This document shows positions 18,794 through 59,300 of a DNA stretch of 64,000 nt, in pieces (position 1 is the first letter of the stretch; each line of letters starts with the position of its first letter). The position numbers and the translations under genes are program-made. This stretch comes from Schmidtea polychroa (lineage: Eukaryota). The stretch covers positions 77,850,397-77,914,396 of the forward strand of contig CM097887.1 of NCBI GenBank assembly GCA_044892525.1. The letters run 5' to 3'. A model generated the notes under the pieces. That model did no database searches. It worked only from the letters and a program-made list of their open reading frames with translations, and was not told the DNA's origin.

Positions 18794-18899
18794 AGTAGAT
18801 GGATTGGGCACCGCTGGCACAGGGCACCGCTAGCACAGTACCCCCCTCCCCCCGTCGGTAAGATTTTCAAAAATATTCTAAGTCTAAAAGTACATTTTT

Positions 18900-19550: not shown

Positions 19551-19702
19551 ATTATTTTTAAAAAATATTATTATTTTTATTATTATTTTTAAAAATATTA
19601 TTATTTTATTTTTAATTTTTTCAAAGTTCCCGCCAACGAAAATTAATAATCGATAGCTCATTTTAAAGCTCAATCCAAGACCTTTCGAATGAGCCATATA
19701 TC

Positions 19703-19756
<54 letters not shown>

Positions 19757-20299
19757 GTATTAATCTATATACACCGAGTCTATGTACTCTGAGTCTATCC
19801 GACAAAATATTTTGTCCCCCTATGGGTAATGCTCACAAGGGTACTGGTCACGCTCAACAAATCAACAAAACATACATTTATTTAAACAATAAAATAATGT
19901 AAAATTAACAAAGGTAAACTAAATATTGATGTACTACTATTCGCAGCAATATTGTTTGAAAACAAACGGCAATACAAAAGTACTCATAGATGACTCATTT
20001 ATTTTTTGAAGAAAGACAATGACGCACCCATGGGATATATTATTTATTACTATCAATAGTATTAATATTATTATTATTAATATTATTATTATTATTATTA
20101 TTATTATCATCAAGTTTTAATTACCAAGGTAATTTAAACAAAGACCATGACTCAGTCGCTGAATCATCAAGGTCGTTCTATTTTTAGTAACAAAGACATC
20201 TATTTTTAGTAACATTTTGAATATATTTTTAGTAACATTTTTGATCCGATCATTGATCCGATGACTCGCCAAGGTCATTCTATTTTTAGTAACAAAGAC

Positions 20300-21730: not shown

Positions 21731-22272
21731 ATTATTGGGAAAGATATTAATGCCCGCGCGGAAGATGTTATTTTCAAAATTATTATTTNNNNNNNNNNNN
21801 NNNNNNNNNNNNNNNNNNNNNNNNNNNNNNNNNNNNNNNNNNNNNNNNNNNNNNNNNNNNNNNNNNNNNNNNNNNNNNNNNNNNNNNNNNNNNNNNNNNN
21901 NNNNNNNNNNNNNNNNNNNNNNNNNNGAACATTTTCATCAAATATTTTTCAAAGTATTATTTTCAAAGAATTATTTTCAAAGAATTATTATTATTATTTT
22001 TATTATTATTTGCAAAGTTCTAATTATTATTTTAATTTAGAAGTTTCATTATTATTATTTACTTAAATATTCATAAAACTTAATTTCTACGTCAATTACA
22101 TGATTTTCAACATTTTCATCATTTGCATGATTATTTTAATAATTTTCTACATTTTCAATATTTTCACGATTTTCAACATTTTCATGATTATTTCAGGAAC
22201 TTTTCATCGAATATTTTTCAAAGTATTATTTTCAAAGATTCATTTTCAAATTATTTTCAAAGTTTTTATCAA

Positions 22273-22327
<55 letters not shown>

Positions 22328-22804
22328 GTATAAAATGATGATTGCTTGGTAGCAGCATTTATTATTTAAAACAATAAAATGATAATTTAAGCCTTTTGCT
22401 GCAAATAATGTATTTAATGAAAGAATTTTCGACTATACGATAGTCCTTGTCAATCTATTATTATTATTATTATTATTATTGGTAAAGAAAAATCTAAAAT
22501 ATGGTTTACACGCACAACCCATCAACCATTATTATTATTATTATCAATATTAAAAACATAAAATATTTTTACACACACACACATGCACAATCCATTAAAC
22601 ATTATTATTATTAACGCAAATATTAGTGAAAAACCTAAAATATTTTTTACACGACCCATTAAACTTTATTATTATTATTATTATTATTGCAAATATTAGT
22701 CAAAAACATAAAATATTTTTACACACACACAACCCATTAACAATTATTATCAATATTAGTGAAAACCTAAAATATTTTCTACACACATATACAACCCTTT
22801 GAAC

Positions 22805-22843
<39 letters not shown>

Positions 22844-28800: not shown

Positions 28801-31659
28801 TTAAATTAGTTTATTTAAGAAGTTATTTTATTCATTGTGAGGATATCAGTGAAGGAAATTTATGATTTTAATTAGATTTCTAGAAATTAAATCGGTTAAA
28901 TATCAGTTAATCTATTGAAGGAATATTGTTATCGGATGGATAAATGATATTTTGCTAAATTACCTTTGCTAAATATTATTTTAAATGACTAAAAATAACA
29001 AAATTAACCAATATTCATAAATTTATCGCACAAAATATCCATGTTTTGGTTACTCAAACATCTTAAATTTCTCGCAAAGATATACTACGTCTAATGATCA
29101 TCTAATTAAATTAGAAAAGAAATATAACCCTATATGAACATGTATTTTTAACTAATAAGCACCTTATTTGGTTAAATGATAACCATATTTCTATTATGAC
29201 TCCTTTAAATATTTTTGCCTCGAACAAATTTACTCCAAATGATAAAGAATTTAAAATTATCAATGAATAATGACCATGTTTTTCTCATATTAATAACTAT
29301 TGTAACGAACATTAGATGAATAAATTACCTTTTGCTTTAAATGTCTAAAAGGTTAACCAATAAATTAGTCGCTCGACATAAGTGTAAAGTTACATTTAAA
29401 ATATTCACGAATTTCTGATCATCTCACTAAATTACCTAAGAATTTCTAAATGATTATTATACCCTTGCGACATGTTGAATGTGACCAGTACCCTTGCTGG
29501 TAATACCCATAGGGGGACAGAATATTTTGTCGGATGAACTCGAAGTATATGGTCTTTATTGATATATCAAAATACTGTTATTTATAAATTAACTAAAAAA
29601 TACTATATTATTTTACTGAATGATAACTTAAATGTTTTTAATATACCTATTTCTAAAGTAAATCGACAGCTCAGACCAACAACATGTATGGATGACCACC
29701 CATTGTTAATTTATTTCCAGTGTCACGTCCCTCAAAAATACCGTGAGTGTTTTAACAAAACTGAGCTAAAAGAAACTTTCCAGATAACAACTCACCTGAA
29801 TGTTTTGAACAAAAATGATCGAAATTGAGAACAAACGATTAGATGGCGATTAACTTCTGGCCACAACCCTAACAACATGAAAATTAAGATTTAATTATTG
29901 AATTCGTTGTTTTCTGCCTGGAAATACTAACAGAATACTTTTTAATTCAAAGAATCTTCATTATAAATTTTTGAATTTAAAAAATTAAATGAAGGATATA
30001 TAAGTGTACATAAAATTATAATATTATATAAAATTATACTGTATTTATTAATAAATTTAGAATACATAAAATTATAATATTATAATATTATATAAAATTA
30101 TACTATATAATAATATTAATGTTTAAATATGCTTAAATAACTAAATTGTTTAAATATTTTTAAATAACTAAATTTAAATTATTTAAATAAACTTTTCATA
30201 TAACTTTATTTCTTTTGTTTTAGTATCCATAAAGTAAGTATATAAAGAATTTACTACAATATTTTAATTATTATATAATGAATTATATAATTATATAAAT
30301 GAATTATATAATTATGAAGAAGATAAACCAGAAAAAATAGTGAAACACTAAAAGACTTATGTTCTGGATTTAGAGATTTCTTATTAAAACATGAATTATT
30401 GGATTATGGGGAAGATGACCAGACAAAATGGTGAAACACTAAAGGAGTTATAGTTCCGGATTTCTTAAATGAATTAGCTGATTGTGGGTGTCCTTCAACA
30501 TGAATGTTTACTTATCAGACTTAAATTATGTAAACTTTCAACGAATGTCAAAAAAAATGGGAAAAATCGATGTTTTAGCAATTAAGTAAAGTACTCGTCA
30601 TACCTGAAGAATATTATTATTAATGTAAGACATGAATTAATTCTTTAAAATATATATATTATATTTAGGTATCTGTGTTTTATGGTGGGAAATGACATGG
30701 AAAAAGTATACCACAAATAACAGTTGACTAATTTATCAAGCCTGTGACGATAAAATGTTAGATAATGTAAGTTAATTGCTTTTAAATCAATATAAATTTT
30801 AGCAATGATAGTTGACGCCGCATCAGAAACTAAGAAATACGTCCAATTTGCAAGATGTATTTCAAATGGCCCGATGGAGATGATAATTTTGAGATAGATT
30901 ACCAGCAGAAGAGCGAGAAAAATTTGTAAATTAAATATAAAAGGGTTGGGTGGGTCCTCTTTATCCCTTAATTAATATATATTTACAAGCTGATCGTCGT
31001 GGTAGGCGGTTGTAATCCAACTAGTGGGAGGCCTCTGTAAATATATATTGTTGTTAGTGAAAACATTAATTAATTTGGTTATAGTGCCAATGACGCATGT
31101 ATTTTGAAATTATACGTTTCGAATGTGCTGGTAGTTGACTACCCATGCTAGGCGTAATGTTCCGTACGGAAAGCTATAATGCCCAGGTTCTTTTGACCCC
31201 ACTTGGGGGATGCACAGACGACCCTTGTGGACGCGAACAAATATCCACCGTGTCTTTCAGGCACAGATATTTGGTCACTGCTCATTAGACCTGGCAATAC
31301 TAAATGCATAAACTTTGCCTTGTCCTCTCTTGTCTTGATTTTTATAGTTTAAATAATTATTAAAAATAGTATGTGTGATAGGTTTTATTTACTAACCTTA
31401 ATTAATTTACCCTTGCGACATGTTGAATGTGACCAGTACCCTTGCTGGTAATACCCATAGGGGGACAGAATATCTTGTCGGATAGACTAGGAGTATATAC
31501 ATCCATTTTAAAAAGGTATGTGTATATAGAATGTATGTATAAAATTATCACTCCTTATTGACAATTTCCTGTAAAGGCAAACACAGAATACTGCAAACAT
31601 ATAATAATTCTCTACCCCATAACTTAGTGTGTAAAAATTATTTTAAGTTTTTGACTAAT

Positions 31660-31701
<42 letters not shown>

Positions 31702-32178
31702 GTTCAAAGGGTTGTATATGTGTGTAGAAAATATTTTAGGTTTTCACTAATATTGATAATAATTGTTAATGGGTTGTGTGTGTGTAAAAATATTTTATGT
31801 TTTTGACTAATATTTGCAATAATAATAATAATAATAATAAAGTTTAATGGGTCGTGTAAAAAATATTTTAGGTTTTTCACTAATATTTGCGTTAATAATA
31901 ATAATGTTTAATGGATTGTGCATGTGTGTGTGTGTAAAAATATTTTATGTTTTTAATATTGATAATAATAATAATAATGGTTGATGGGTTGTGCGTGTAA
32001 ACCATATTTTAGATTTTTCTTTACCAATAATAATAATAATAATAATAATAGATTGACAAGGACTATCGTATAGTCGAAAATTCTTTCATTAAATACATTA
32101 TTTGCAGCAAAAGGCTTAAATTATCATTTTATTGTTTTAAATAATAAATGCTGCTACCAAGCAATCATCATTTTATAC

Positions 32179-32230
<52 letters not shown>

Positions 32231-33767
32231 TTGATAAAAACTTTGAAAATAATTTGAAAATGAATCTTTGAAAATAATACTTTGAAAAATATTCGATGAA
32301 AAGTTCCTGAAATAATCATGAAAATGTTGAAAATCGTGAAAATATTGAAAATGTAGAAAATTATTAAAATAATCATGCAAATGATGAAAATGTTGAAAAT
32401 CATGTAATTGACGTAGAAATTAAGTTTTATGAATATTTAAGTAAATAATAATAATGAAACTTCTAAATTAAAATAATAATTAGAACTTTGCAAATAATAA
32501 TAAAAATAATAATAATAATTCTTTGAAAATAATTCTTTGAAAATAATACTTTGAAAAATATTTGATGAAAATGTTCNNNNNNNNNNNNNNNNNNNNNNNN
32601 NNNNNNNNNNNNNNNNNNNNNNNNNNNNNNNNNNNNNNNNNNNNNNNNNNNNNNNNNNNNNNNNNNNNNNNNNNNNNNNNNNNNNNNNNNNNNNNNNNNN
32701 NNNNNNNNNNNNNNNNNNNNNNNNNNNNNAAATAATAATTTTGAAAATAACATCTTCCGCGCGGGCATTAATATCTTTCCCAATAATAATGATAAATTAA
32801 ATTATTGCGTAATCGATAATTAAACCAAAAAAAATAATATAATCAACGATTTAAACAAAATTAAATTATTACATAATTGATAATTTAAACAAAAATTATT
32901 ATTGCATAATCAACGATTTAAACAAAATTAAGGTATTAAGTAATCGATAATTAAAACAAAAATAAAAATATTATCATACAATCAACAATTTAAACAAAAT
33001 TAAATTATTACATAATTGATAATTAAAACAAAAAAATATTATTATATAATTAACGATTTAAACAATATTAAATTATTAAGTAATCGATAATTAAAAAAAA
33101 ATAAAAAATTATTAAGTAATCGATAATTAAAACCAAAATAAAAATATTATCATATAATCAACGATTTAAACAAAACTAAAATAAAATAATAATATGACCT
33201 TGAAATAATAATATTTTGAAAAATAATAATATGACCTTGAAAATAATAATATGACCTTGAAAATAATAATATTTTGAAAAATAATAATATGACCTTGAAA
33301 AATATAATAATATTTTGAAAAATAATAATATGACCTTGAAAATAATAATATTTTGAAAAAAAATAATATGACCTTGAAAATAATAATATTTTGAAAAATA
33401 ATAATATGATCTTGAAAAATATAATAATATTTTGAAAAATAATAATATGATCTTGAAAAATATAATAATATTTTGAAAAATAATAATATGACCTTGAAAA
33501 ATATAATAATATTTTGAAAAATAATAATATGACCTTGAAAATAATAATATTTTGAAAAATAATAATATGACCTTGAAAATAATAATATTTTGAAAAATAA
33601 TAATATGACCTTGAAAATAATGAAGTTATATTAATGTTATAATAATAATAATAATAATAATATTAATACCCTTGCGACATGTTGAATGTGACCAGTACCC
33701 TTTCTACAAATACACATAGGGGGACACAATATTTTGTCGGATAAACTCGGACTATATAGATTAATAC

Positions 33768-33811
<44 letters not shown>

Positions 33812-35039
33812 TTGATTAAAACTTCGAAAATACTAATTTTGAAAATAACATTTTCCGCGCGAGCGGTAATATCTTTCCCAATAATAATGATAAATTAAAT
33901 TATTACGTAATCGACAATTAAATCCAAAAATATTTCATAATCAACGATTTAAACAAAATTAAATTATTGAGTAATCGATAATTAAAACAAAACATGTTAT
34001 TATTACATAATCAACGATTTAAACAAAATTAAATTATTACGTATTCGATAATTAAAACAAAAAATAAAAATATTATTATATAATCAACGATTTAAACAAA
34101 ATTAAATTATTACGTATTCGATAATTAAAACAAAAAATAAAAATATTATTATATAATTAACAATTTAAACAAAATTAAATTATTACGTATTCGATAATTA
34201 AAACAAAAATAAACCGCTGGAACAAAAATAGATGTCTTTGTTACTAAAAATAGAATGACCTTGGCGAGTCATCGGATCAATGATCGGATCAAAAATGTTA
34301 CTAAAAATATATTCAAAATGTTACTAAAAATAGATGTCTTTGTTACTAAAAATAGAACGACCTTGATGATTCAGCGACTGAGTCATGGTCTTTGTTTAAA
34401 TTACCTTGGTAATTAAAACTTGATGATAATAATAATAATAATAATAATATTAATAATAATAATATTAATACTATTGATAGTAATAAATAATATATCCCAT
34501 GGGTGCGTCATTGTCTTTCTTCAAAAAATAAATGAGTCATCTATGAGTACTTTTGTATTGCCGTTTGTTTTCAAACAATATTGCTGCGAATAGTAGTACA
34601 TCAATATTTAGTTTACCTTTGTTAATTTTACATTATTTTATTGTTTAAATAAATGTATGTTTTGTTGATTTGTTGAGCGTGACCAGTACCCTTGTGAGCA
34701 TTACCCATAGGGGGACAAAATATTTTGTCGGATAGACTCAGAGTATATAGACTNNNNNNNNNNNNNNNNNNNNNNNNNNNNNNNNNNNNNNNNNNNNNNN
34801 NNNNNNNNNNNNNNNNNNNNNNNNNNNNNNNNNNNNNNNNNNNNNNNNNNNNNNNNNNNNNNNNNNNNNNNNNNNNNNNNNNNNNNNNNNNNNNNNNNNN
34901 NTCGAAAGGTCTTGGATTGAGCTTTAAAATGAGCTATCAATTATTAATTTTCGTTGGCGGGAACTTTGAAAAAATTAAAAATAAAATAATAATATTTTTA
35001 AAAATAATAATAAAAATAATAATATTTTTTAAAAATAAT

Positions 35040-35585
35040 AATATGACCTTGATGAGTCATCGCGATGACTCATATGACCTTGGGAATGACCTTGGATGAG
35101 TCATGTGACCTTGAAAATGACCTTGATGAGTCATAGGATGACTCAGATGACCTTGAAAATGACCTTGAAAATTTTGATGAGTCATCGGGTGAGTCATATG
35201 ACCTTGAAAAAATTTTTCAAGGTCAAATGAGTCATACTATGAGTCATGGTCTTTGTTTCAATGACCTTGATGAGGCATAGGATGAGTCATATGACCTTGA
35301 AAAAATTTTCAAGGCCATATGAGTCATACTATGAGTCATATGACCTTGAAAATGACCTTGATGAGTCATGGTCTTTGTTTAAATGACCTTGAGAAAATTT
35401 TTTTGCCCTGGATGAGTCATATTATGAGTCATATGACCTTGAAAATGACCTTGATGAGTCATCGGATGAGTCATGGTCTTTGTTTAAATGACCTTGAAAA
35501 TTTGATGAGTCATAGGATGACTCATGGTCTTTGTTTCAATGACCTTGATGAGTCATATGTCTTTGTTTAAATTTGACCTTGAAAA
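35040..35585. repeat. Subterminal array of ATGA(C/G)TCAT and TGACCTTGA motifs (right arm)
   Basis: Mirror of 18900-19550 with a different unit order and count. Confidence 0.9.
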
Positions 35586-35701
35586 AAAATGTACTTTTAG
35601 ACTTAGAATATTTTTGAAAATCTTACCGACGGGGGGAGGGGGGGGGGGTACTGTGCTAGCGGTGCCCTGTGCCAGCGGTGCCCAATCCATCTACTGATAA
35701 G

Positions 35702-36665: not shown

Positions 36666-37155
36666 TATTTGATAACGACAAACATGCATCCTAGTTGTCC
36701 CAGAATCCCAGTTTAAAGAGGACTGCTGGGTTCAACAGATTTTTTAAACATTACAATCTACAACATAGATAAAAATTACATGAATATTTCAACATAAATA
36801 TTGCATAATATAACACTGTAAAACTCATTTCAATTTTTAAACAAATTTCTGAAACATTAATATTAAAATTAGGGGTCTCGAAATTTTGATTTATATTGAC
36901 AAGAGCTCAAAAATTACTAGAACAATTTCGAAAAATTCAGATTGGTATGAAAAAATGTACTTAGAGAACAAACCTAAAACAATCTAGTCAACTTAAGAAT
37001 ATATTCTGGTCAGAAGAACAGCAACAGAAAAATATGGAATTACAATCAGGTTCAGAATTATTTGTTTGTTTTTAATTGTTGAAAAGATAAATGAATTCCT
37101 TATTTTGTGTTATAAAGGACATAAGTATTAATATAATTAATAAAATATGTAAATA

Positions 37156-38552
37156 CAGGGTTTTTCAATTGAAATCAGATTTTTTTCAAATGAAATCAGA
37201 ATATTTTCAAATGAAATCAGAATTTTTTCAAATGAAATCAGAATTTTTTTCAAATGAAATAAAATTCAAATATGTATATATAATATCCATAAAATATTAA
37301 TATTTTTCAAAATCAATGAACCATAAGACACCTCCAACAAAAAAATCACAATTGAGCAATGCTGCGAGAAAACCTATATGTATCAAATTTGATTCCGGCC
37401 AAAGCGTAAAAAAAATTGCTGCAGATCTCGTTATGAACTATAAAACTGTTTATAGTATTATTAGCATTTACAAGACAACAGGAAGGATTGATAAAATGGA
37501 AGATAGAGGGTGCAAGTCCAAAAAATTGAGCGAAGAGCATTTAGTTTTTCTAAAAGAAAAAATTTCCGATGATTGTTCTACTCCGTTGAGAGGTATGAAA
37601 AGAAGTTTGAGTGAGTCTATGAATGTTAACGTATCGTTGGCCACAATTCATAGGTCAATCAAAGACTTTAATTTCTCTTTTAAACGAGTAGGCTTAATTC
37701 CCGCTGCCCGCAAAACTGCGGAAGCTATTGAGCGCAGGTATGAGTATGCCAATGAATATTTGGCATTAAACTAGGACCATGTCTTTTTCCTTGATGAAAG
37801 CGGTTTCAATTGCTCGATGAGATTGGGATATGGACGAAGCGAAGTAGGGTCTCCTGCTCGCAAAGAAGTGAGAAGTATACGAAGTAAAAACTATTCAGTG
37901 TGCGCAGCAATCAGCAAAATGTCGATTTTGAATTTTGAAGTTGTAGAAGGTGGATACAATGCAGAGAAGTTTACAAATTTTGTCTCCCAATTTATAGGAA
38001 ATCTACGATCACAAGGAATATCGACAGGTACGATTATAATGGATAATTGTACAATAAATAAAAGTGTTGGCGTACGCGATTTGATCAACAATTCTGGATT
38101 TACGTTACGCTTTTACCACCTTATTCGCCGCAGTTAAATCCGATTGAAGAGTGTTTCTCGAAATGGAAATCAATTGTCAAATCGGCTAACGTTCTAAATG
38201 TAATCGAGTTGAAAAACGCTATTGAAATGGGACACAATTCGATAACCACGGAGGATTGTATCGGATTTTTCAACGACACGAGAAGGTTTGCATTAAAGGC
38301 GGTAAGAAGAGAAGAATTCTGATTAAAAGTTTTAACTACCAATTTTTACTCTATCATGATTTCATTTAAAGTGTATATAATATTTTATTACCCATAAAAA
38401 TTATGAATTCAATTTAAAACAGTTCTGATTTCTATTAAAGAAATTTTGATTTCATTTGAAAAAATTCTGATTTTATTTGAAAAAAATCTGATTTCATTTG
38501 AAAAAATTCTGATTTCATTTGAAAAAATTCTGAATTCATTTGAAAAACCCTG
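37156..38552 (+). mobile_element. Tc1/IS630-like DD34E element, full length, transposase (37316-~38325) with one stop and one frameshift
   Basis: TA|CAGGGTTTTTCAA ... TTGAAAAACCCTG|TA, with ~21-bp subterminal repeats (TTTTTCAAATGAAATCAGAA). FLDESGFN, IIMDNC and, after restoring one T, LPPYSPQLNPIEECFSKWK, giving 34 residues between D2 and E. Confidence 0.93.
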
Positions 38553-39899
38553 TATATACATATACACATCAAACATTAATTGCATTTTAAACATTCCCAT
38601 AACTAAAATAAACTTTTTTCAGAATTAAAACCCTTTTTAACGAAATCAATTATTTTTTGTATGGTAGAACTTTTTCAGAACCTTTTATGGATGAAAAGTG
38701 AATTATTTGTATGTTAATCTCATTGCATGACAAAACTACTAAATAATCACCCGAACTAATGAACTAATAATAATTTAATCAAGAATAAGGTGTGGCTAGC
38801 TTTATATTAACTTTTCAGCATTGACAAATCAAGTAATTTTTAATTAAAATAGAAAATTGTGTGTAGCAATTAATTACAATTAATTATATACAGATTTTAA
38901 TTTATTTTGATACCCTTGTTACGAAAATACACAATTTCAATGTTATTAAGGACATAAGTATAACTGATTAGTCTCAAATCATAAAAATCAAGGATACATG
39001 ACAACAATAAAATGGTTTTGGGGACATCTAAATACTTATCTGTAACAACATGAAAACACAGTCTAATTTAAGTTTGTAAAAAAATCTAAAGATACTATAT
39101 TTATTATATATTTATTGTATAATTATTAAAAATTGTAAACCACAAAAATATTATCATACATTTAATAACAATATTTACAGAATAAATAATTCAAAACTAA
39201 ACTCACCATATCCTCCATGATTTTTTTACAGTCGAAAAATTATTATAAATTAGATAATTTATCAATTTATTTTGATGATCATTTTTATTTTTGAACTAAA
39301 TCAAATTAAAATGGCTTCAAAAATATTTCTTTTATTGATGAGTTAAAACTTTCTCTTTTTTGATGTGAAATAAAACTTTATTAATTTTTGCAAAATAGTA
39401 GTAAAATGATATCATAATACTATTTTTGTTAATATAACCGAATGACATTAGATGAGAAAATTAAAACTAGAACACTTGTATATATTTAGTTTTCCACTAT
39501 TAAAAAGCAGTTTCGAAAATTTGTGATAACCAGAAAGAGGTGATCCATACTCTAAAACTAAAAAAAAAGAATTATATCGTAAAGGAAAGCAGGTCAAAGA
39601 TGATTAAGACAAAGGCGAATGATGTTATTGAGAGTATGTGTCTAATAAACTTTTGCTAAGTAAAGAGGCCTGATTCCTCGAATAACGACTAATAATCTTA
39701 CACACATATAAATGAAATATTGTACTATATGGAATTCGTGGTTATCTTTAAAATGGAACTATACAAGTGAAACTGTTAAATTCCGGACAATCATAAAGTT
39801 CATAGACCAAGTTCTTTTATTAAGGTCCTCGTACCTAGATCCGTCTTGCTTTAGCGACTTGTTGGGTCAAAAGTTAAAGGACATCTAAATCCTGGTGGA

Positions 39900-40729: not shown

Positions 40730-41028
40730 TTATTTTGTTAAATTCAATTGATAAATAGAAAATTCTCTGATTGATCCGACCTTTAATATGAACGGACCTT
40801 CCTGTTTTGGCGAATATGTTGACACTCGAATATTATAGATGCCGCCAGACATTTTACTCAATTCAAGGACCACAAATCCACGGCTGTAATTATTATTGAA
40901 TCAATTTCATCCTTTAATCATTTTTACTATATTACCGATAATCTCCAACTGATTTTTTTGTGAAATTATTAGGATTTGATGTGTTGTATTGGTCGATAGC
41001 TTCTATATCGAATCCTATGGCAAACTCT
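40730..41028 (-). CDS. CAPN7: Calpain-7 exons 14-15 (C-terminus)
   Basis: REFAIGFD...KKSVGDYR | RGFVVLEL...[21 protein letters not shown]...TK*, with a 52-nt intron at 40884-40935. Confidence 0.92.
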
Positions 41029-41398: not shown

Positions 41399-44300
41399 TT
41401 TATTCTCTATTCTCTATTCAATTAAGAATTTCCCAAGCAGCAGTAATGGATAGGTAGGTATTTGTTGGACACCCCCAACTGAAAATTTCTGCATAAAAGC
41501 CTGGAATCCCGGGTGCCACAGCATGCCTATCCCGGCACATATTTTGTTCCACTTCGAGCACTGCTTCAAACTATAAATCAATATTTATATCTTTTAACTA
41601 AATACTACTAATAGATCAATGCTGTATATTTATGATAAATTTCTTTGGCGATCTCCGGTTTAATATAGAAATTATAGATAATATAGATAGATAATAATTA
41701 TAGATAGATAACTTATACCAGTAATTTCTGTATATTTGCAAGCAGTTAAATTGTTAAATAGATCACGTGCTTGTTAGAAAAGTTTAAGAATATTTTCAAT
41801 CATAAACGCATGTACATAAATGTTTTCATGTATATTTTAATGTTCTAGCAACTTAACACTAGATTTACTGACATTAGAAGACAATTTGACGGGTGTCCGT
41901 AAAAATAGATATATACAACACATTTCCCCTAAGCGAAAATGGCGACAAAGAAAAGGATAGTGATATATTCGCGTATCATTGTGTCATTAATAATCAGCAT
42001 AAAAAAAATTCGAAAAAATAATATTTCTTTTGTATATTTAATTTTAAAAAGTGAATCCGTCAAATTGACGGGTTCCGTAAATCTAGTGTTAAAAATACAT
42101 TTCATATACAAGATTGTAAATATGTGTTATTTCAACATAGTTTATTCATTTTCACCAAAATATAATAATTTTATCACGTGCTCCAAACTAATATGACCCG
42201 AGGGTTTCATGATTTTAAGCTTGAACTCATTAGAGTATTTTTGAGAAATAGGAACATAAAACGCGTGTTAATTGGATTTTCTAACCATGGTGAAATTTGA
42301 GAATATTTATCCTATTTCAATATTACTTAACATTCTGAAGCTTTATTCCCATAAAATTGGAAAAAATATATATTGTAGATATAAAATTCAAATAATTTTG
42401 GACGGCGGAAAGCTGATTGAATAGCCCTGAAATATTGTATAAGTATATAGCAGTGTTGTCCAACTGAAAATCGCACACGGCACACTAAATAAACATAAAA
42501 TCGCTCACAGCACTTTCAAAAAGAAACTAAAATATTTTATAAGAAAAAAACAATACACTTGAAAAATCGTTCACTTTGAATATTTATTAATGAGATACTT
42601 GAACGTTTTATTTTGCGGATACAAGCTCAGAACGCGGCTCGTTGCTTGATAGGCATACTCTTAATTCACTGTCAATCATCTTTAATCTTTCACGATTTTT
42701 TGATTTTATTTCTGTGAGGGGAGAAAATCCTAATTCGCAGAGGTATGATGATCCAACTGGCATCAACAAATGAACTGCATATTTTGTCAGTTGAGGAAAT
42801 TCGGAAATCGCACTTATAATCAAAAAAATTGCGTCGTAAAACAAGAAAATTGCATTTTAAACAAAAATAAATTGCATTTATTAAAAGTTTTAAAATAATT
42901 ATTATAATTTTTAATTTCTAATTATAGGCAAACTCTTATTAGAAATTTTCGATTACAATTCATTTCTAGCTACCATCACGAAGAAAAAAAAACAAGTGAT
43001 GCATTTATTTTTATATACAATTCAAAAGTACTAAAACCTTAATAATTTTAAATTTTTACATATTTTTTCGAGGCACACAATGGACAACAATGGTATATAG
43101 TATAAGAGATTTCAATACACAATTATATTTGATAGGTTATTACTAAGTTATTAAATTCGTGAGATTTTAAAGCTAGGAATGCTCCCGGCTTAGAGATTTG
43201 ACCGAATTATAATTTATAAGACAAAACATAAATGGTACAATTAGAAATAGCAAAACCTAGCCAATTGTTTGAGTCCATTACTTACATTATTAAATAAGGT
43301 GCTAAAAACACTTTTTTTATAAATGAATTACAAAATTTTTATTAATTTACAAGTTTTTCTTTTAATTAAAATAATTAATTAATTTTCAAACTCAACGTTT
43401 TTCATACAAATAGTTGAATTTGTTTTAAAAAAATCACTTTAATTGTATTGGAAAACTCCTGAAATATATTTTTTGAAAAGTAATTGATTATTTATAATTA
43501 AATTAGGAAAAATGTGTAATTTGTTTATTAAATCTAATACGTTTATAATTTTTTCTATAATTTTTTAATTAAAATTATTTTTTATGAATAAAATATTTAA
43601 ATTTGAAACGATATTGATCATAAACAATATCTTTTCATATTTAAATATGGTACCATACAAAAATAGCAGCCTGTGACATTATTGGTTGGCTCTCTCCATA
43701 TCATATGAACAGTAAAGGCACCTGTAGTGATTTGCCAGGTATTGTATTTTTTTATTTCTTAAAAATAAAAAAAATGTATTAAAACATTTGTTTTAATATT
43801 TAGTTTTTGTTTGAATGATATTTTAAATTTAACTCATTGTTAAATTGTTTGGATTAAATTTTTTAAGATCGTTCATTTTATTAACTGTATTAACTGTTAC
43901 AATAATATACCAGGCATTTCATCTACTTCTATTAGGAATTGTTGGATTTTGCAGTTGTGTGCCAATGCAATGATAATATAATTCATTTAATTATCGGTAT
44001 AAGTTTAATGATTGTTATTATCATGTTATTGGCCTCATTGTTCGTCTGCTTCATTATTAAAGAAACTTCTCCAGACAAGATAGTTTGTGATGGAAAAAAA
44101 AAGTTGAAAAAGATGGAAAAAAAGATGATATCCGTAAAAGTTCAATCGAATTCGCTGAAGATAAAAATGAATCAAACGAACTTTTGACAATAATACTTCA
44201 ATATTCATTCAATCAGATCCCATTAATAATTATCCGAATAATGAAAATATCACTCGTCTATCTCGAACTAATTCCCACGAACATTTAATGTTGTTAGCTG

Positions 44301-47300: not shown

Positions 47301-50300
47301 TATTTGTAGAATTGATTCGATCGGAAGACTTAACTGATTATCTAATGAAAATTATGACAGACAAAGGATACAGTTTTACAACAACTGCCGAAAGAGAAAT
47401 TGTTCGAGATATCAAAGAAAAACTGTGTTACATTGCTCTTGATTTTGCTACCAACTACTGGTATTCGTGAGGCCACTTAGAACAGCATGATGAAATGCGA
47501 TGTGAATTTTCGTAAATATTTATATAGCCATACAGTTTTATCAGCGGGTTCCTTAATGTATCCTGGTACTGGCCCATTGGTATTCGGTCCATCATCAACG
47601 GCAATCAACCAATTATTATTTTTATTATTATAAATATTATAAATAGTAGTAGAATAAAATGATAAATTCTTAGTAGGTACATTAATTAAAACTAAGAAGC
47701 AAATGATAATATTATAATATAATATTATATTTAATGTATACTTTGCACAAAAGGCTTATATATTATCATTTATATATGTTGCATTTACAGAGTAGTATTG
47801 ATCATTCGATGTAATCAAAGAATGTCGTCGACAGAAAATAAGTGCAAAATTCAAAGATGAAATATAAAAAAATAACTTCCTCGATGATTATAAAAGAAGC
47901 ATACTAATGGAATATTATCAATGGAATATTTGACTTGAAATTTTTTTAGACCCAATCATTAAATTTTTAGAGCTGGAGGGGGGTTAAATTTTTTAAAATT
48001 TTGTTTTAATGGAGTATTTTTTGCTTTAATTATTTGTTTAAATTAATATTTATTTTTAAATTTTATTATTATTTGTTTGAATGTCAATCTGAAACTCACA
48101 CTATAGCCAGAGGGCTTTTTTATTCTCGGTTAAAAACCCTAAAAATAAATAAATTCACTTTAAGAAAGCCTAAATATTTTTCTCATAAAAAACCATAAGT
48201 ATTATGTCTCGATAAAAAACAATATAATTTATTTTTAATTTAAAAATCTCAGTTAATTTTTAAAAAAAATATTATTTTTTAAAACTTTAACATTTAAAAT
48301 TTAATTTAATAATTTAAAAATTTAAAAAATTTTTTATTAATTATTTAATTTAACACAACAATCAATACATACAATACACAAAAGCTTATTTAAAAACACT
48401 CAACACACAAGTATTTACAGCATTCTGCACATTAATTTTCGGATTCAATGATTTTATCAACAACGCCTCACAAATCACACGTTCCCAATAACTATCAAAG
48501 TTTTTTAATAAAATTTTGAAATCAGACATACCTATTTTAATCTTACAGCCCTTATTGTGCTCACCAATATGGGTCAAAGACTTCGGTCTACAATGTTCTC
48601 GAGCTCGAATACAGAGATGACGGGAAGTCTCTCCAATGTATGTGGCATTACACCCATTACATGTAAACTGATAAACGAGATCGGAGCACAATTCAACCGG
48701 AGTCTTTGACTTATTAATAAACATATTGCGTACTTTCCATGAAGTTGACACTATCCTATAGTTTAAATTCCCTAACTGCTTTCTTATCTTCACTTTATAA
48801 TCCTTAAAACTTTCTGAGTACGGCAATATTAACACAAATTTAGGCCCATCGTCCTTGCTCACACTATTTAATTTATTTAACTCATCAGACTCATTCACCT
48901 CAACAAAATCACAAACAGATTTTAACTCATCAGACTCACACATCTCAACAAGATCACACCCAGATTTTCTCAAACATGGATCCTTAGGATTTTTAATAAA
49001 TTTGTCAACAGTCTCTTTCACCATAATTACTAAAAAGGATTTTGAATAACCATTCTTCATCAACAGTTCAACCAACACGTCAACACTCTTTACCGAATTT
49101 TTAAAAGTAGAAGACAAAGACCATGCACGATAAATCAACATTTTCACCATATTTCTTTTATACTTGAATTCACAAAAACTTTCGGAAGAAGTATAGTACT
49201 TCTCATGCTAATTAAAAAATCCCACAAACCAATGACAAATTAACACTCGGTTAAGAAATTTCAAGTCTCTTGACAAACAGATTTTAGCACATTTCCAGAA
49301 ATTCGTTTTTTATCGTTGAACTGATGAACGTTTGCAGTTTTCGAAAACAGTTTTAAGATTATCCTTAATGTTATTGATCTTCCTTAAAGCTGAGTTTTGT
49401 TTTTTAATTTCAAATAAATTGCAACTATCAAAAACGAAACTTCTTTTTAATTACAAGATGAGGAAAATGTGTATATATGTTTTGGGTTATTCAAAAAGTA
49501 TAAATTGATATGTTAATATATTTCCTCCGGATACTGGATATGAGCAAATAATAAAAGACAAAATTACAGTTCTTTACCGAATTAGAACCGGGAAAGTCGT
49601 AGCCTCCCATCACTTTCATATACGCTTTTTCGAGCAATGACACCCAGAGTTCACTACGATTGCTGGAAAATGAGCATAGTAACTTGTTGTTTCTCCCCAT
49701 AGGCAGAAAATCATCGATTATAATCTGTAAAAACAAAATAAAAAATTTGGTAATTGACATATGTAAGCGTTTCAAACTACTGATATCGGATAATTATTAA
49801 TTACTACTAGAAAGGGTAAAATAATAAAGTTGTGATATACATGAAAGACACTAATTAAAACCTTATTTGTTACTTAGTTTTCGAATTACAAGAAATTTTT
49901 CTTTCAACATATTTTTAGCAATTTATTAATTAATAAAAATATTGATAATAAAAAACAATAGTAAAATTACAAAAAAATTTCGGATTATAAAATCAAGACA
50001 ATTTCAAATGCGAAAATGTTGATTTATTGTTAAATGGCAATAGCATATAATAAATTAGTAACTCATCATAAACTTGTTTGGTTTAATACTGAAGATATTT
50101 TACTAACAATGCAAAGCAATAATAAGAGGGAAAAAATGACATTATTGGTAGTATTTGACACTCACTAAGATCAGTCCTTTAATTATAATGTAAATGAAAC
50201 GACGAATTCATTTCTTCAAGCCCATTTCATTCTTCTGAAATGGCATTCATATCTGATAAATGATAAGTAGACTAATTTTATTGATAATTCCGCCTGAAAA

Positions 50301-53300
50301 CTGCTAGAATGTAAGTTCTAACAGAATATAACAAAAAACTGTAATAAAGGCCAGNNNNNNNNNNNNNNNNNNNNNNNNNNNNNNNNNNNNNNNNNNNNNN
50401 NNNNNNNNNNNNNNNNNNNNNNNNNNNNNNNNNNNNNNNNNNNNNNNNNNNNNNNNNNNNNNNNNNNNNNNNNNNNNNNNNNNNNNNNNNNNNNNNNNNN
50501 NNNNNNNNNNNNNNNNNNNNNNNNNNNNNNNNNNNNNNNNNNNNNNNNNNNNNNNNNNNNNNNNNNNNNNNNNNNNNNNNNNNNNNNNNNNNNNNNNNNN
50601 NNNNNNNNNNNNNNNGCGCACGTTATACGCATTTTTACAAACCGGGCACCCCCATGCGCGGTATCTGTGGGTGCGCGCTTTATGATTTATATTTTACACG
50701 TGGCGGCATTGCCAGTGGAAATATTTTTATGATGTGACAGTAACCCTACCATCGGTTTTATTGTTTATTGTAATCAGATACCGTGCGCGTTATATGCGCT
50801 AAAATACGGTATATATATAAAATAAGAAAATATATTAACCTTTCTCGGAACTCCATTGATGTTCAGTTTCACCATATATTTGCCACAAGGGTTATACACG
50901 CACCGTTGTAATCGATCTTGTGGATAAATAATACTGAAATAAACCAAAGTTTAGAGACATTAGAATTTTTGATGGACAATAAGAATAGATTCCTTTCTAA
51001 GAATTTCAGTAATAGAACTTAGGTGTCAACCAACATCAAGGAAATTATTAATAATAATAATTAATAAAGGTAATCGTATTAATATAATTATAACATAATG
51101 AAGGAAATAATAACAATTTTTATAAAAATAATTTCTATTCCCGATGTCCCTAGTATAACGAAATTTATCACAGTATAAAGAGAGCTGAAAATAAAACAGG
51201 GAAATTCATTAATTCAAAGGGATTAATTCTAACTTATAATTTTCTAGGGTGCCCAAAAAATGTAGAGATGTTTGAAATCAAATTTGAAGTAAATTAATTT
51301 TATTTTCGAATAGATTTATAGTATTTGATTGAGAATATGATTAAACTCAGTTAAAAAGCAAATAATTTTTTTTTAATAAATAATACAAATGTGAGTTTAC
51401 GTTCATTTTGGAAGATTTTTCCTCATTAGGATATATTGATTAATCGGTTTTCGAAAAATACTTTAAGAGGTATTCAAAATTTATTCAAAGGGTTTGCCCG
51501 TAAAAAGTATATTAGTGATGTTCGTAATTTTGTCACAAACAAACACGCAGCACTGAAACATCTTTCTGACTCAACAGATGGTGGAATGATCAATATATGA
51601 ATTATATAATTTATCTAATAAATCCGTGCGAATTTTGTTGTGTTCGAAAAGCATCATTTACCCTTTTATATAAGCTGAATTGTTCGTTGAAATTGTAGTT
51701 GAATATGTTAGTTTTTGGACTTCTTATACTTCTTGAAATTCATCGGCTTTGGAGTATTTAATTTTTATTTTCTGCCTTATCAATATCGTCGAAGTCAGTT
51801 TCGTCTTGTACGCCAGAGTCAGATGAACACTTTAAGATTAATCGATCCGATATTTCTTTAGCGGTATTTTCCAGTTCTTTCTTTGTTTGCCGTTTGAAAA
51901 TTGAGTTTGGTTTAGACAACGATTCAATATAAGAAATTATATTTTTTTATATATATTTTTTATTATATTTCGCATTTTAGTTATTGAATTATAGAAGAGT
52001 TGTCATAATACACTTGATTGTTCCTTTAATTTATGCATTAAAAATTCAAAAATTTCGGTTATCTGTACAATCTTTCCAACAAAACACCAAACCACTGACT
52101 TCTATTACGTCTAAAGCTTCAAATAATTCTGAAATTATAATGAGCTCATCTTCATTGAGAAATATATCCTCAAAGGTTAGGTCAGTTAAAACTTTTTAAT
52201 TAACCGTTTTTATTTCAAAAAATCTTTTATTCATAGCTAGCATAGAGTTCCAACTTGTAGAGGTGTCAATGATTTTAGTTGGAGATTATCGGTAATATAG
52301 TAAAAATGATTAAAGGATGAAATTGATTCAATAATAATTACAGCCGTGGATTTGTGGTCCTTGAATTGAGTAAAATGTCTGGCGGCATCTATAATATTCG
52401 AGTGTCAACATATTCGCCAAAACAGGAAGGTCCGTTCATTTTAGTTTGACATTCTTTTTGTAGGATATCATTTTTAACAGAAGATTTTCGAATTATTTTG
52501 GCAATGTTCACACTTTTTTGTACAACCACGGACAGCTCTGTAACTATATCTAACTCAATAATTTTTGAGCAGTTGACTTCTTCAATCCAGGTCTAAATTT
52601 CATTCGATGTGTTATCTTCGTATTCACCTGACTGATATTCTTCATTTGATTTCTGAATAGTTTGTTGGCTTTCAATTTCCAAAAACCTAGGCCTACTGAA
52701 TGCAGTGGCAAAAATAACTACTGCCTACTAAAAACTAAGGTTCAGTATAAAATTTTATAAAACATATTACAAGGTTAAAGAGTTCCAATGAATTAGTTTT
52801 TGATTGTATAACTTTTTTCCGAGAACAAAAACTTGGACTTATGAATCAGCATATCTAATGAGTTATTTGAGAAGAAAAATACATAAATTTAGTTAGAAAT
52901 TTCCGTTTATAAAATTTTTAGACTCGGCAAAAAGTTATTTTGATTTTGTAATTTATATTAAGACATTCTTTTGAATTTTCTATAAAATCTGTGAAAGTTA
53001 TAATTTCGTAACTTTTATGCTCACAATAGATTTACAAATTGAATCTACTATAAGCAAATAAAATATGAGTCATATTCGCCTGACACATTTTAGGTAATTG
53101 AATTATTTGGGAAAAAATTAGATGAAACTGTTGAAAATAAATTTGTAATTATTGCCGGATATATTTTTTCTTGTATTGCCTCTTTCGCTGCTACTAGCGT
53201 CTATAGGCACTCATCAATACTGTCAATATCTTGCTTATATATAATTTAAATAGCAACATTTAAATAGGCCATACAGATAAGTGTAAAAGAAACGCGTCTA

Positions 53301-56300
53301 GCAAACGAAATAGTTCAAGTACATATATTGACAAGTGTCTATAACAGTGTTCTCCAAACTGGGTGTCGTTAGATTTCTTAAGATTATATGAAAAATTTAT
53401 TGAGTGTAACCGATTTTAAAACAAATTCAAAAATTTCAGCTAAAAAATCTTAGGAATTTCCACTGAGATTGTTTTTTTATTAATCTTAATGTTCATTTTA
53501 TTTTCAAAAAGTGATCTTAAGTGATTGAAGGCGACTAGAAAAATATTTTCTTTCTCTAAGTTGTTTAACTTGTATTTTGGAAAAACAATTTTGTGATAAA
53601 TGTAAATTGTCATTTTAAACACTACATAAACAGAAGAAACAATAAATTAGATTAAAAAGTGCAAAAAAACATTATTTCCATAAGGTAAAGAAGTAACCTC
53701 CAATTTGTGTTATTTATCAAGTGAAAATTTGCATGTTTTAAGTAAGTTTTATTCGATAAATTGTAAATAATAATATAATCGAGTTTATTTTTTATTAGGA
53801 TGGATAAATTTTTGTTGAATAAATCAGTTAAAGCACCAAATTCAGTGACCAAAAAATCGAAAAGAAAAGAAAATATGCTGAAGACTTTATCGAATTTGGA
53901 TTCATTGTGACTGAGAAAATGGACAGGAGTTTCCCTTTTGTCTGGTGTGTAATAAGACATTGTCAAAGGCGTCAGTGGTTCCCAACAAATTGATTAGACA
54001 CAAGGAGGCTAAGCATCCAGAGCTCTCTTCAAAATCAAAAAATATTTTGAAACTCTGCGAGCACAAAACGAAAAACAAGTGTTTAAGATGAAAAACTTTT
54101 GCAAAATTTCTGAAAAGGCTCAGATTGCAAGCATCCAAGTAGCTTATTTACTCGCGAAAAAAAGAAAACCACACACAGAAGCTGAAAGTATTATTGCTCC
54201 TGCAGTTTCGATTATTGTTAGCATAATGCTGGGATGTGAAGCTACTGCGAAAGTGAAGAGTGTGCCATTGTCAGCAAACACAATTTCAAGAAGGATTCAA
54301 GACCTATCAAACGACATTTAATCTCAAATCATCGAGAATTTTCAGAGCTCAGAGGAATTTTCCAAATTGTGGTCGCTGCAAGCTGAGGAAACCACCGACG
54401 TCAGCGGAAAAGCACAGCTCATTACATTCATCAGATTCGTTCACGGTACAAGTAATTAACCAATATTTGTTTTGCCAGGAGTTGATTAAAACGACCACAG
54501 GAAGTGATATTTTCAACTTGATCGATGACTATGTGAAGAAATATCAACTTCAATGGCAGAAATATGTCGGAGTTTGTACAGATGGCGCTCCAAGTATGCA
54601 ATGAAAATTTAAAGGACTCGCGACCTTGGTTAGTCTTGTTAGGCCTTCAGTCACCATCACACACTGTATGATTCACCGAGAAGCTTTAGTTTCAAAGTCA
54701 ATTCCTTCGCAGCTCCTTATTGTCATTGTAGTGAATTAAAAATTTCAAAAATTAAAAACTTAAAGTGAATCTGAAATTTGAAAAAAAAAATTACTTTATT
54801 TCTATAAAATAGAATTCTTTATGTCTATAAAACAGAATGCTTTATTTAATTGTGTAAAAAAAAACTTTGTTTAAAATATAATAAATTTTGAATTTCTTGA
54901 CTATAATTATCAATTGGTTTATTCTTAAATATCAATATCCAGAAAGATGTTAACTAGAAGCATTATAGAATTTTACGATAATAAAGCAATTTTTATAACT
55001 GGTGCTACGGGATTATTAGGTAAATCAGTTATTGAGAAATTATTAAGATCAGAAGGCGCATCAGTAGCCGAAGGATTAGCCAAGCTTATATCATCAGACT
55101 TTCCCGATTTAGTCAGAATAGAAAATCCCGAAGCACTTAATAAAATTACAGCATTTGCTGAAAATGTAACTGATGTTAATTTCGGTTTAAATTATAACGG
55201 TTTAAATGAATTATTAAACAATGTATCTGTTATCATGCATGCTGCTGCCACTGTCAGATTTAATGAGCCGTTAAAATTGACGACAGAAATGAATGTAATA
55301 CCCGTTATTAAGCCGATGGAAACGTGTCATCAAATGAAGAATCTTGGAATTTTAATCCATATTTCAACTGCGCATGTAAATTATGATATGGAATTTGTGC
55401 ATGAATACGTTTATCCGCCATCATTAGATCCTTATAAGGTTTTCGATATCGTCCAGTACTTGATTGAGGATCTGATCAATCTGATCACTCCAAATATGTT
55501 GAAAAACAAACCAAATACTTATACATTCACGAAGCAATTGGCTGAATATACTATTCAGCAAAACATTGATAAATTACCATTAGTGATCGTTCGGCAATCA
55601 ATTATTGGAGCTACATTCATTGAACCGTTTCCGGGTTGGACGGATAATTTTAATGCAGCTACTGGACTTATCGCCGCTATCAGCAAAGGTATGCTGAGAT
55701 CAATGATGGGAGATTATATCAAATCCACCAATATCATCCCTTGTTGACACAAACGCCAATTTTATAATTGCCGCTGGCTGGTATTCTGCTGGTACATATG
55801 GTACTAAAGTAACAAATGAAAATGTCCAAGAAAGCCCGCCACCAAACAAGAAGAAGCCGACTACGACAGTCATGAATCAAGACGTCTCGATCATCAACAT
55901 TATCAAATCAAAGCCTTTGAACTCCAGAATTTTCAGCCTTCTTTGCGATGCGATGGATTCTGATATCAAAACCCCTCTCTACCACACAGAAGTTCGACGG
56001 CTGTCCAAAGGAAAAGTTCTTCAAAACTGAGCTTTTAGTTTTATTTCACTCAAAACTCTTGAAGTTGAGGATATCACACTAGATTTTGATTTTCGAGACA
56101 GTGACTGGTGTTTGAAGGTATCATTTCTTAATGATCTTTTCAACACACTCAATGTTCTTAATAAGAGTTTTCAGGGATCAGCTGAAAGTATTATGACGGC
56201 AACATCAAAGTTTCTTTCATTCAAAGAAAAACTTCACTTGTTCATCAGAAAAATTAAGGAAAAAAGCTTAGATTTCCTCCCCACCATTGATAAATTCGCT

Positions 56301-59300
56301 AATAAGGATGAAATTTCTGAGTTTGCTCTCCAAACCAAGGAAATGTTTTTGAAAGTATTCGACAATTATTTCTCCTCCTTAAACCTCAACCTTTATCAGT
56401 GGATTTTGAATCCATTTGGAACAAATGAATATCTTGAATTTTCCACGAAAGAAGAACAGTTTATTGATTTGAAAAACGACATGGTCAACAAAATTAATTT
56501 TGAACAAAAAGGTCTGAAAGGGTTTTGGATTTCTCTAGGCAAGGATTATCCCGAGTTGAGCATCAAAGCGTTCAAATTATTGCTTCCGTTTTCTACATCA
56601 TACTTATGTGAACTTGGATTTTTGGCACTGGTTGAGATAAAATCAAAGAAACGTGAAAGACTGCAAACAGTTGATGAAGAAATGCGAGTTAGTTTGTCGT
56701 CGGTCTTGCCTCGCTTCGATGTTGTTTGCTCGGAACATCAATCACATCCATCACATTGACGTTTGAGAAGTAAAAAATAAATAAAAAAACATAAAATAAA
56801 TATAATTTGTGTTAATTTTAAACGGCATTAAACTTTCATAAAATTTTTGTTGAAAATAATTGTCAGAGGTGTCGCGAATTTTTTTTTAAGTGAATGGGGT
56901 GTCGCCATCGAAACAACGTGCTTCTGTCAACAACAAATGTGTATACATGCCTCGGGCACTATAGTACTTTGTCAAGAAATGGCGTAGGTTCTTTTTTTCG
57001 ACATCGATTTATGAATAATTTAAAACAATTTTACATAATTCATTTCCGGGTATAATAAACATATTATGTAAATCATTCACATGTATAATAAATGAATTTC
57101 TATTTCATTCCAATATTCTAATAAATAAAATTCTAAGTGAAGCTAAAAAATATGAAACATAAAAATAAATTTTACTTAATATTTTACTTATAATTTGTCA
57201 GTAAAATATTAACTGAAATTTTTTCAATATTTATTTGAATTATAGTTTATTAATTTATATTGCAAAATATCAATAAAAACTTGTGGCTAACTGGTTCTTA
57301 CATGTCATTATTAAATTATTATATCAATTTACTTTGTGATTAATTTATTTTGAAATCTCCTTTCATATTGCGCGGCAACAGCCATTGACGCAACAAAAGA
57401 GCAATCAGAAACCACAGTTTGCTGAATCGAGAAACAAGACACTGCCATAATCATTTTAGGCTCCTCCAAATATTCAGAAGGCCGTATCCATTTTTTCAAT
57501 GAAGAAATCTGTTTTTGTGATAATGCCAGTAGACCATCTTTATCACTGAAGAATTGGTGTGAATTCAGAAAGCTGAAAATCAAAACTCTTACGTGAACGG
57601 AATAGTAAATGAAAATCGTTCTTTATAATCTAAGGCATCAATAAATGGAAGATACTGACGTGAGTTGATCGTAGATGTTGATCTAAGCACGGAAATTTCT
57701 TTCCCGCTGAAAGAAGAACCTTGTTGGGGTTGAGGAACTGGTAAAGATAAAATTAATATTTTAAAAGAAATGTTAATATAAATTGAGATGTACGGTGTAT
57801 GTGCGAATGAATTTATCCCGATGAAATGATGAAGTTAGTGAGAAGAACAAATAAAATTTTGAACAAGAACTTGAAGTAGTGTCGAATTTATAAGCAACTA
57901 TAATTACTATAAATATCATAGTAAATTAAGATTGGATCAAACTACATTTAACGAGTAAGCAAATTACAGTTATTGGTGTTTATATCCTGGTCCGTTCACA
58001 AATATTTCAGATTTCCGTGAAAATTCTAAAATACTTAAGTGTTATTTTCCTTTACTATGTGCTATGACTAAAGGATCATTATAAATATGAAAATATACTG
58101 CAAATTTGTTTCAATAGGAAACATAGGTTAGATAAATAAAACATTACACATACAGTAAATATAATAATTTATAAATTTAATCAATTAGTAATTTTTGTCT
58201 AATAGGTGGAAAATTATCTAAATTAACCCGTATTTTGTATATTGTAATATTGCAGACTGTTTGTGCTATTTTAATACTTAAAAGAACCAAAAAATATATC
58301 AGAATACGGAAGATTTTTTGTCATATTCTACGCTTTCTGTGAAAATTATCCAAATAAATAGAAAACCTAAATTTTAGGTCTTGATTGTAGACCACGCACT
58401 GAAAAGCCCTAATCTATTATATTCTTAAATTCAGGATAATGCAGGAATACGCTTAAGTGAAAATAAAAAAACCTTAATAGTTATATTACAGATTGCGTCT
58501 TTGCCATTATAAATAAACTTTATTAATATATTTTTACTGGGCATAAATATAGATTTTAATAGACTTCTTTATAGAGAGCTAAGTGAAATTGTTGAAACGT
58601 GTAATAATATGCATTATAAAAGACGTAGTCATAATTTGACCTGTTACTTTATTTCAGTGATTCCCAAATGGATTTCCACGGAACCATTATAGGTTCTGTG
58701 GGGTAATGAGCTCTAAGATATTGCTAATTTTAAAATTTCTGCAACGAATATTTTCTAATGTAGTTCAAATTTTAGCCCATTCGCCAAGTTTCGTCAAATA
58801 AATCATATTTATGTGAATTAGGATTATCAGCACTGGCCGAAATTAAATCTAAGAAGCGCGAACGATTACTGGTGTTTGGCCAAGAAATTAGAGTTTGCTT
58901 TAAACATTAGCCTCGAATTGAAAGGTTAAGCTTTGAAAATCAGGGCCATTACTCGCGCTAATAGTCTTAAAATAAATTTATTCCCAATCTTTAAATTTTG
59001 AGATTTTTAATTGTTTGAGTTCCGCCGAAGAAAAATGAAATTTTAGGGTTGCCCGAACAGAAATAGCTTGAGAAACACTGCTTTATTTGATAAAAAACGA
59101 ATTAGAAATAAATCAAAAAAAATTTTTTTTTACTTCAACTTATACATCTTAACTGTTTAATATCATGAAAAATAAAGAAAAATTTTCGCTGAAATAAATT
59201 CAAAAATGCTAATTTACTTGTAATTAAAATTAATATATTTATTGAATTTTATAAAGTTAATGTTTAACCGTTATTATTGATTTATCAAAAAATTTTCTAT

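Follow-up and report, generated by a model that had tools for sequence, protein, structure and literature searches.

We found that a fragment of a fatty acyl-CoA reductase (FAR) gene sits, as a discrete insert of 1142 bp, inside a dead hAT transposon in an intron of the calpain-7 gene of Schmidtea polychroa. It is bounded by an exact 5 bp target duplication and by TG...CA ends, it is truncated on its 3' side and it is decaying. The FAR part is very probably a retrocopy of a spliced mRNA, and the machinery of an LTR retrotransposon is the likely agent of its insertion, if one counts under this heading the primer-binding-site variant discussed below. The window, i.e. the whole stretch of 64,000 nucleotides that was analysed, is AT-rich (about 27% GC), transposon-laden animal sequence. 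The features of the locus are the following (TSD, target-site duplication; TIR, terminal inverted repeat):

50936..57340, minus strand: intron of the host calpain-7 gene containing the hAT element (tblastn, approximate limits; Pfam PF00648)
53337..53344, plus strand: left target site of the host hAT, 8 bp, GTCTATAA, with central TA (no matching copy 3' of the element)
53345..56917, plus strand: decayed hAT element, left TIR at 53345 (the sequence ends in a subterminal motif near 56917)
53800..56759, plus strand: broken hAT transposase gene, split by the insert (tblastn with the homologue P0259, 46-60% identity by block)
54722..54726, plus strand: left copy of the TSD, 5 bp (direct sequence comparison)
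54727..54917, no strand assigned: left end of the insert, putative LTR part and/or FAR 5' UTR, with the TGTAG terminus (composition and repeat scan)
54918..54946, plus strand: putative end of the upstream (5' UTR) exon of FAR, abutting the ATG (match to residues 45-54 of P0142)
54947..55829, plus strand: spliced FAR coding fragment, codons 1 to about 308 of about 544 (Pfam and homologue alignment)
55830..55868, no strand assigned: non-FAR tail, 39 bp, candidate LTR terminus (limit of FAR homology at 55829)
55869..55873, plus strand: right copy of the TSD, 5 bp (direct sequence comparison)

The two copies of the direct repeat GTCAT, at 54722-54726 and 55869-55873, cannot be extended on either side, and the insert between them (54727-55868) starts with TGTAGT and finishes with ACGACA. 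All these coordinates had been given by the first-pass annotation, which, in one of its two alternatives, had also read the ends as integrase-type ends with a target duplication; both points are reproduced here. When the insert is excised and a single GTCAT is left behind, the transposase frame is open across the junction, and the spacing from the motif H-C-x-I-H-R to the motif x-S-R-x-F becomes 31 residues; of the 151 proteins of the transposase search that were examined, 47 homologues could be matched at the two motifs, and 46 of these have the same spacing. This means that exactly one GTCAT belongs to the target and that the repeat is a true target duplication; the target sequence neither lost nor gained anything. 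The earlier statement that removing the insert restores the transposase frame is right locally, across the junction, but not for the gene as a whole, which is broken by stop codons at 54319, 54602 and 56028 and whose 5' half changes frame three times. Calculated post hoc from the composition of the window, the chance of the 5-mer match is 0.0015-0.003, that of TG...CA ends is 0.003, and that of the pattern TGTNR at both ends is about 7e-5.

The insert does not have the terminal direct repeats with internal primer-binding site and polypurine tract by which TRIMs and other non-autonomous LTR elements are recognized: no direct repeat exists between its two ends, so that there is no pair of 5' and 3' LTRs, and no polypurine tract was found in it. 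Within the 64-kb window neither end has a second copy. As inverted repeats the termini match at 12 of 64 terminal positions, in runs no longer than 6 bp. Neither end carries poly(A), the only such runs being an internal A10 and an internal A9; the search for structured RNA in the insert returned only two chance-level Rfam matches, and the window holds no tRNA gene.

The open reading frame of the insert is the N-domain of FAR (Pfam PF07993, E 7.6e-48). It carries, as had been noticed before, a short deletion, which we place after position 55048, behind KLLR, and which takes out 42 bp in frame (14 codons), and a single +1 frameshift, late in the frame, near 55742. Homology to FAR stops at 55829, at about codon 308 of about 544, which is a 3' truncation. 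Among the matches listed, the closest full-length protein is P0002 (544 aa, 69%), while two fragmentary records are nearer still: P0142 (UPI00060FC181), 84% over 134 sites, and P0290 (UPI0006089D03), 91% over 65 sites. These two read like partial gene models: in P0142 the FAR homology stops after MKNLE and is followed by V, in P0290 it begins at GWIDNF and is preceded by K, and these residues would be compatible with read-through of a GT donor and of an AG acceptor. The insert is unbroken across the three break points of these models. One of them, EPFP|GW (positions 243-245 of P0002), is common to 10 of 229 other FAR proteins, among which are those of Varanus, of two Ixodes and of Didymodactylos; at MKNLE, the model of the coral Stylophora opens a 31-residue gap at 148. 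As the insert is contiguous at three model breaks, two of which are exon boundaries in other animals, the FAR part appears to be a processed retrocopy. The lost introns would have stood at 55348|55349 and 55633|55634, judging from the breaks in the gene models of relatives.

The start of the coding fragment points the same way: residues 45-54 of P0142, 18 residues ahead of its FAR start, match the approximately 30 nt directly before the ATG of the insert, with 2 base changes in the best 8 codons. None of 2000 shuffles matched as well beside the ATG, and 1 in 150 did so anywhere in the leader. We read these 30 nt as coming from an upstream exon that splicing has joined to the exon with the start codon. 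The case for the absence of introns is strong but indirect, the exon structure of the parental gene being deduced from protein records. Between the two routes that had been suggested, retroposition is borne out by a copy which is spliced, 3'-truncated and devoid of poly(A), while DNA-level capture from an intron-containing FAR gene is disfavoured. Other near-identical FAR fragments of at least 146 residues are absent from the best 120 of 190 hits and from the best 120 of 989. One can also notice that P0002 carries, after the N-domain (residues ~300-335), an acidic, Asn-rich insertion of about 30 residues, which belongs to the host FAR lineage and which other animal FARs lack; the cut of the retrocopy falls at the start of this insertion.

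We built a FAR tree of 49 rows, made of the insert and of 48 sequences chosen from 240 hits, all of them animal or unnamed, with no bacterial or plant rows. The insert joins P0142 and P0002 at 100/100 within animal FARs, and the deeper nodes do not resolve the position of this group of three. A horizontal origin, which the first-pass annotation had raised, is not supported by this placement with two FARs of host-lineage type inside animal FARs. The insert is best read as having arisen by duplication of a FAR gene of the host lineage itself.

The flanks of the FAR fragment are of two very different kinds. The leader (54727..54917) has about 17% GC and contains a 23-bp tandem repeat in 2.8 copies, in which the plus strand gives TATAAA and the minus strand AATAAA; hence the repeat does not fix an orientation. 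No match to this leader was found in phages. An AT-rich leader of about 220 bp had been described: the AT-rich left end is there, but its last 30 nt or so belong to FAR, as indicated by the match to P0142. FAR 5' UTR may even account for the whole of the left 190 bp of the insert, leaving a single end that would come from an element. On the right, the non-FAR tail that had been reported exists, but it is 39 bp long instead of about 65 bp, since FAR homology reaches 55829. This tail (55830..55868) has 54% GC and ends in CGACA, that is TGTCG on the minus strand.

What is known of LTR retrotransposons fits this structure, apart from the missing LTR pair, polypurine tract and primer site. Template switching by the reverse transcriptase of LTR elements is described as the source of animal retrocopies that are partial, truncated more in 3' than in 5', devoid of poly(A) and flanked by element sequence (Tan 2016, PMC5131818). 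LTR elements mostly have TG...CA ends and 4-6-bp TSDs (PMC12440569, PMC10045372), the ends of Gypsy elements follow TGTNR (PMC2836005), and Gypsy-type elements are reported as abundant and active in planarians (PMC6431247, PMC8532177). The insert is likewise a partial mRNA copy without poly(A), with TG...CA ends and a TSD in the 4-6-bp range. Because both of its ends fit the Gypsy pattern TGTNR, which by chance would happen so rarely, we regard the reverse transcriptase and integrase of an LTR element as the best mechanism. A FAR mRNA would have been reverse-transcribed together with the RNA of such an element: the reverse transcriptase would jump from the element to the FAR mRNA at about codon 308, copy it back through its 5' UTR and then return to element sequence. 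The integrase would then have joined this product to a pre-existing hAT copy and so generated the 5-bp duplication. As there is one TG end and one CA end without any internal feature of an element, the simplest form of this process would be a capture inside the LTR itself, giving a part of U3, the FAR cDNA and the last 39 nt of U5. This FAR-bearing unit would either have remained behind as a solo LTR or have entered the genome as a product with one LTR, and would since have decayed by roughly 6-7%. Taken as a whole, from the template switch to the decay, this account seems to us somewhat more probable than the sum of what speaks for other origins; its solo-LTR form is a tentative proposal, which may well be wrong.

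One may go further and imagine a chimeric LTR: an error in the first strand transfer would have put the spliced mRNA in place of the R region, and the cargo, then present in both LTRs downstream of the U3 promoter, would have spread as FAR-bearing elements and solo LTRs forming a small family; or else an integrase that accepts a cDNA with only about 40 bp of element (or a primer-binding site) at one end. Both ideas are speculative and, we believe, rather unlikely. If either were true, there would exist a route to dispersed retrocopies that bear integrase footprints and have no recognisable retrotransposon body.

The alternative which survives best, though we consider it improbable, is target-primed reverse transcription by a LINE or Penelope element: synthesis would start on the 3' end of another RNA (the 39-bp tail), jump to the FAR mRNA and run to its 5' end, and the TG...CA ends would be a coincidence. 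In a single step it would cover the splicing, the sense orientation, the foreign 3' tail and the short TSD. Chimeric retrogenes with a tail from another RNA's 3' end and an mRNA body are indeed made by non-LTR reverse transcription, and a Penelope-type GIY-YIG remnant is present in the window. However, this explanation leaves TGTNR at both ends to a chance of about 7e-5, and the insert has neither a poly(A) nor a simple-repeat tail.

Somewhat less probable still is a one-off repair event, in which a FAR cDNA or an RNA-templated patch was inserted at a staggered break, the tail being filler. The insert is single-copy within the window, and the same intron holds another dead hAT in which a 167-bp piece of a calpain exon is flanked by short repeats; this suggests that templated, non-integrase insertions of gene pieces occur in the host genome. 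But that calpain piece has no TG...CA ends, whereas both ends of the FAR insert are integrase-type; moreover a repair patch sits poorly with a target that lost and gained nothing, and with a filler of 39 bp and 54% GC, unlike its 27%-GC surroundings.

Alternatively, the right end could be a primer-binding site. The minus strand would then read primer-binding site, 26 nt, antisense FAR and R/U5, and the unit would be an intermediate that was integrated by its primer-binding-site end ahead of second-strand transfer. The last 13 nt of the insert (55856-55868) agree at 12 of 13 positions with the 3' terminus of mammalian tRNA-Ser(AGA/TGA), CCA included (PMC10359600, PMC3299991), and three AATAAA and a stretch rich in T lie ahead of the CA end of the minus strand. 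Against this, the annotated tRNAs of Schmidtea mediterranea, taken as a proxy for the host, gave 0 hits for the 10-mer and for the 7-nt core (PMC7962491), and an antisense spliced mRNA requires an additional step. We gave the tRNA-Ser match a low weight because no S. mediterranea tRNA with such an end was found, and this reading is quite improbable. Less probable again is a Ginger-like or other DNA transposon that picked up DNA from a FAR copy already devoid of introns and carried it along in non-autonomous form: Ginger termini are likewise TGTNR and TDD elements produce 5-bp TSDs, but Ginger TIRs are described as about 40 bp or more (PMC2836005), to be compared with the 6 bp at most of inverted repeat in the insert.

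The FAR copy has the marks of a pseudogene. We counted lineage-specific changes over 199 sites, comparing the insert with P0142/P0290 and taking P0002 as the outgroup: 22 changes occur in the insert alone, 0 in P0142/P0290 alone and 25 in P0002 alone, all differing at 6 sites. All the changes assignable between the insert and its nearest relatives (22 versus 0) thus fall on the insert, which shows that the copy is decaying as a pseudogene. The mean BLOSUM scores of the changes in the insert are -0.1 and -0.8, as against +0.7 for those in P0002. The protein difference of 14% corresponds to about 6-7% of neutral DNA change. The lack of any in-frame stop in 294 codons has a probability of 0.08-0.13 under neutrality, which is mildly unexpected and not significant. 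The motifs TGxTGxxGK and YxxxK are intact and there is no premature stop ahead of the late frameshift. On the other hand, the second Rossmann strand, which follows the glycine-rich loop, is lost with the 14-residue deletion, and some 240 residues are missing at the C-terminus. An intact NAD-binding domain followed by PF03015, as in a functional FAR, is not what is found here: PF03015 is absent and the first domain has both a deletion and a frameshift. The insert would make no working enzyme.

The hAT element which received the insert lies between calpain-7 exon matches at 57550-57341 and 50935-50837 (tblastn). For one calpain exon, identity to named proteins is at most 70%, the top values being mostly from trematodes (best 120 of 433 hits). 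From its TIR and its TA-centred 8-bp target, we take this hAT to be of Buster type. Neither its right TIR nor its right TSD is present anywhere downstream in the window. With three stops, three frameshifts and no right TIR, this copy cannot move now, which removes for it the idea of a Pack-type spread that had been put forward; an earlier mobile phase of the element may have existed. The sequence thus presents the hAT as an incidental target and not as a Pack-type carrier. In Pack-type DNA transposons (Pack-MULE, Pack-hAT, Pack-TIR), a gene fragment is found inside a TIR element. The FAR insert is similar in being a gene fragment within a TIR element, but it differs in that the cargo is spliced and has its own ends and TSD, that the hAT is deprived of one TIR and that no second copy lies in the window. 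The in-frame reading from FAR through the tail into the transposase, which had been pointed out, is best taken as a coincidence: it needs the frameshift to be undone, it has one chance in three of occurring, and it meets a stop 53 codons past the junction. When the junction frame was searched against proteins, its best 150 of 570 hits included no FAR-tail-transposase chimera. It is scarcely credible, in spite of the intact motifs, that the hAT spread a working FAR or a FAR-transposase fusion, given the lost C-terminus and Rossmann strand, the frameshift, radical changes that are one-sided and on the insert, and a host element with a stop in its transposase and no right TIR. Three more Buster-type hAT remnants occur in the window (12341-12927, 42451-42805 and 58700-59080), none of them with FAR sequence.

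The solo LTR of a Gypsy-type element is a single unit with TG...CA ends and a 5-bp TSD and without terminal repeat. The FAR insert resembles it in all these respects, its TSD being exact, but about 80% of its length is host cDNA. Like an L1-type processed pseudogene, it is spliced, flanked by a TSD and decaying; unlike it, it has kept its 5' end and lost its 3' end, it has no poly(A) and it bears a foreign tail. The LTR-mediated retrocopies described by Tan 2016 (PMC5131818), and maize Bs1 as presented there, are likewise partial spliced mRNAs, truncated in 3', with no poly(A), with non-gene flanks and integrase-type ends, inside a gene. In those cases, internal ORFs were partly replaced and both LTRs were kept wherever both ends were seen, whereas the FAR insert has no LTR pair, primer-binding site or polypurine tract, and its putative element flanks amount to about 190 bp at most and 39 bp. 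The word "solo" does not occur in that article. In bees, FAR duplication has been tied to transposable elements, with functional genes near them (Tupec 2019, PMC6361591); both cases are linked to transposable elements, but ours is one dead retrocopy. The gene-copying route is a known one; the FAR insert most likely departs only modestly in structure from other products of LTR-mediated retroposition, and it retains unusually little of a retrotransposon. In the literature searched (titles and beginnings of abstracts, few subscription papers), we found no mRNA capture within LTRs and no flatworm retrocopy built in this way, nor any paper on retrocopies in flatworms. The insert does not demonstrate a new mobile metabolic gene; it is a clear and datable case of integrase-type retroposition acting on a metabolic gene in a flatworm. 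If its ends are the two halves of one LTR, mRNA capture inside an LTR would be established, in a form that pipelines relying on LTR pairs or on poly(A) miss. A simple genome-wide screen would follow if the ends are one LTR, for intronless fragments with TG...CA ends and a 5-bp TSD.

Several other elements are visible in the window. A GC-rich region (13000-15050, 44% GC), whose short ORFs match nothing in Pfam and in which LTR-like starts (TGTTGT) occur, is a possible retroelement remnant; considered as a source of the insert ends, it was rejected, as it shares no sequence with the insert. A Penelope-like GIY-YIG ORF fragment lies at 48386-49207, within a calpain-7 intron. The calpain piece mentioned above (52277-52443) comes from a late calpain-7 exon, is 99% identical to its source at 40784-40950 and stands in inverted orientation in a decayed hAT within an intron of the same gene; the repeats on its two sides are of about 9 bp and have microhomology to the source, and its appearance is that of a recent insertion by templated repair, or of a mis-join. 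Positions 18794-35695 form a fold-back unit of 16,902 bp, with arms of about 8 kb which are 99-100% identical, a 675-bp spacer, AGTAG...CTACT ends, a 6-bp duplication GATAAG and no recognisable ORF. Its ends and TSD resemble those of Polintons, and it is possibly a non-autonomous Polinton derivative with giant inverted repeats; it may also be an assembly artefact, given the N gaps at mirrored places. Transposase remnants are ISXO2/Merlin-like at 5415-6102, piggyBac-like at 9864-11636 and of a BED-finger hAT at 16129-18000. Finally, a Tc1/IS630-like element at 37145-38563 has 122-bp inverted repeats and a nearly intact transposase.
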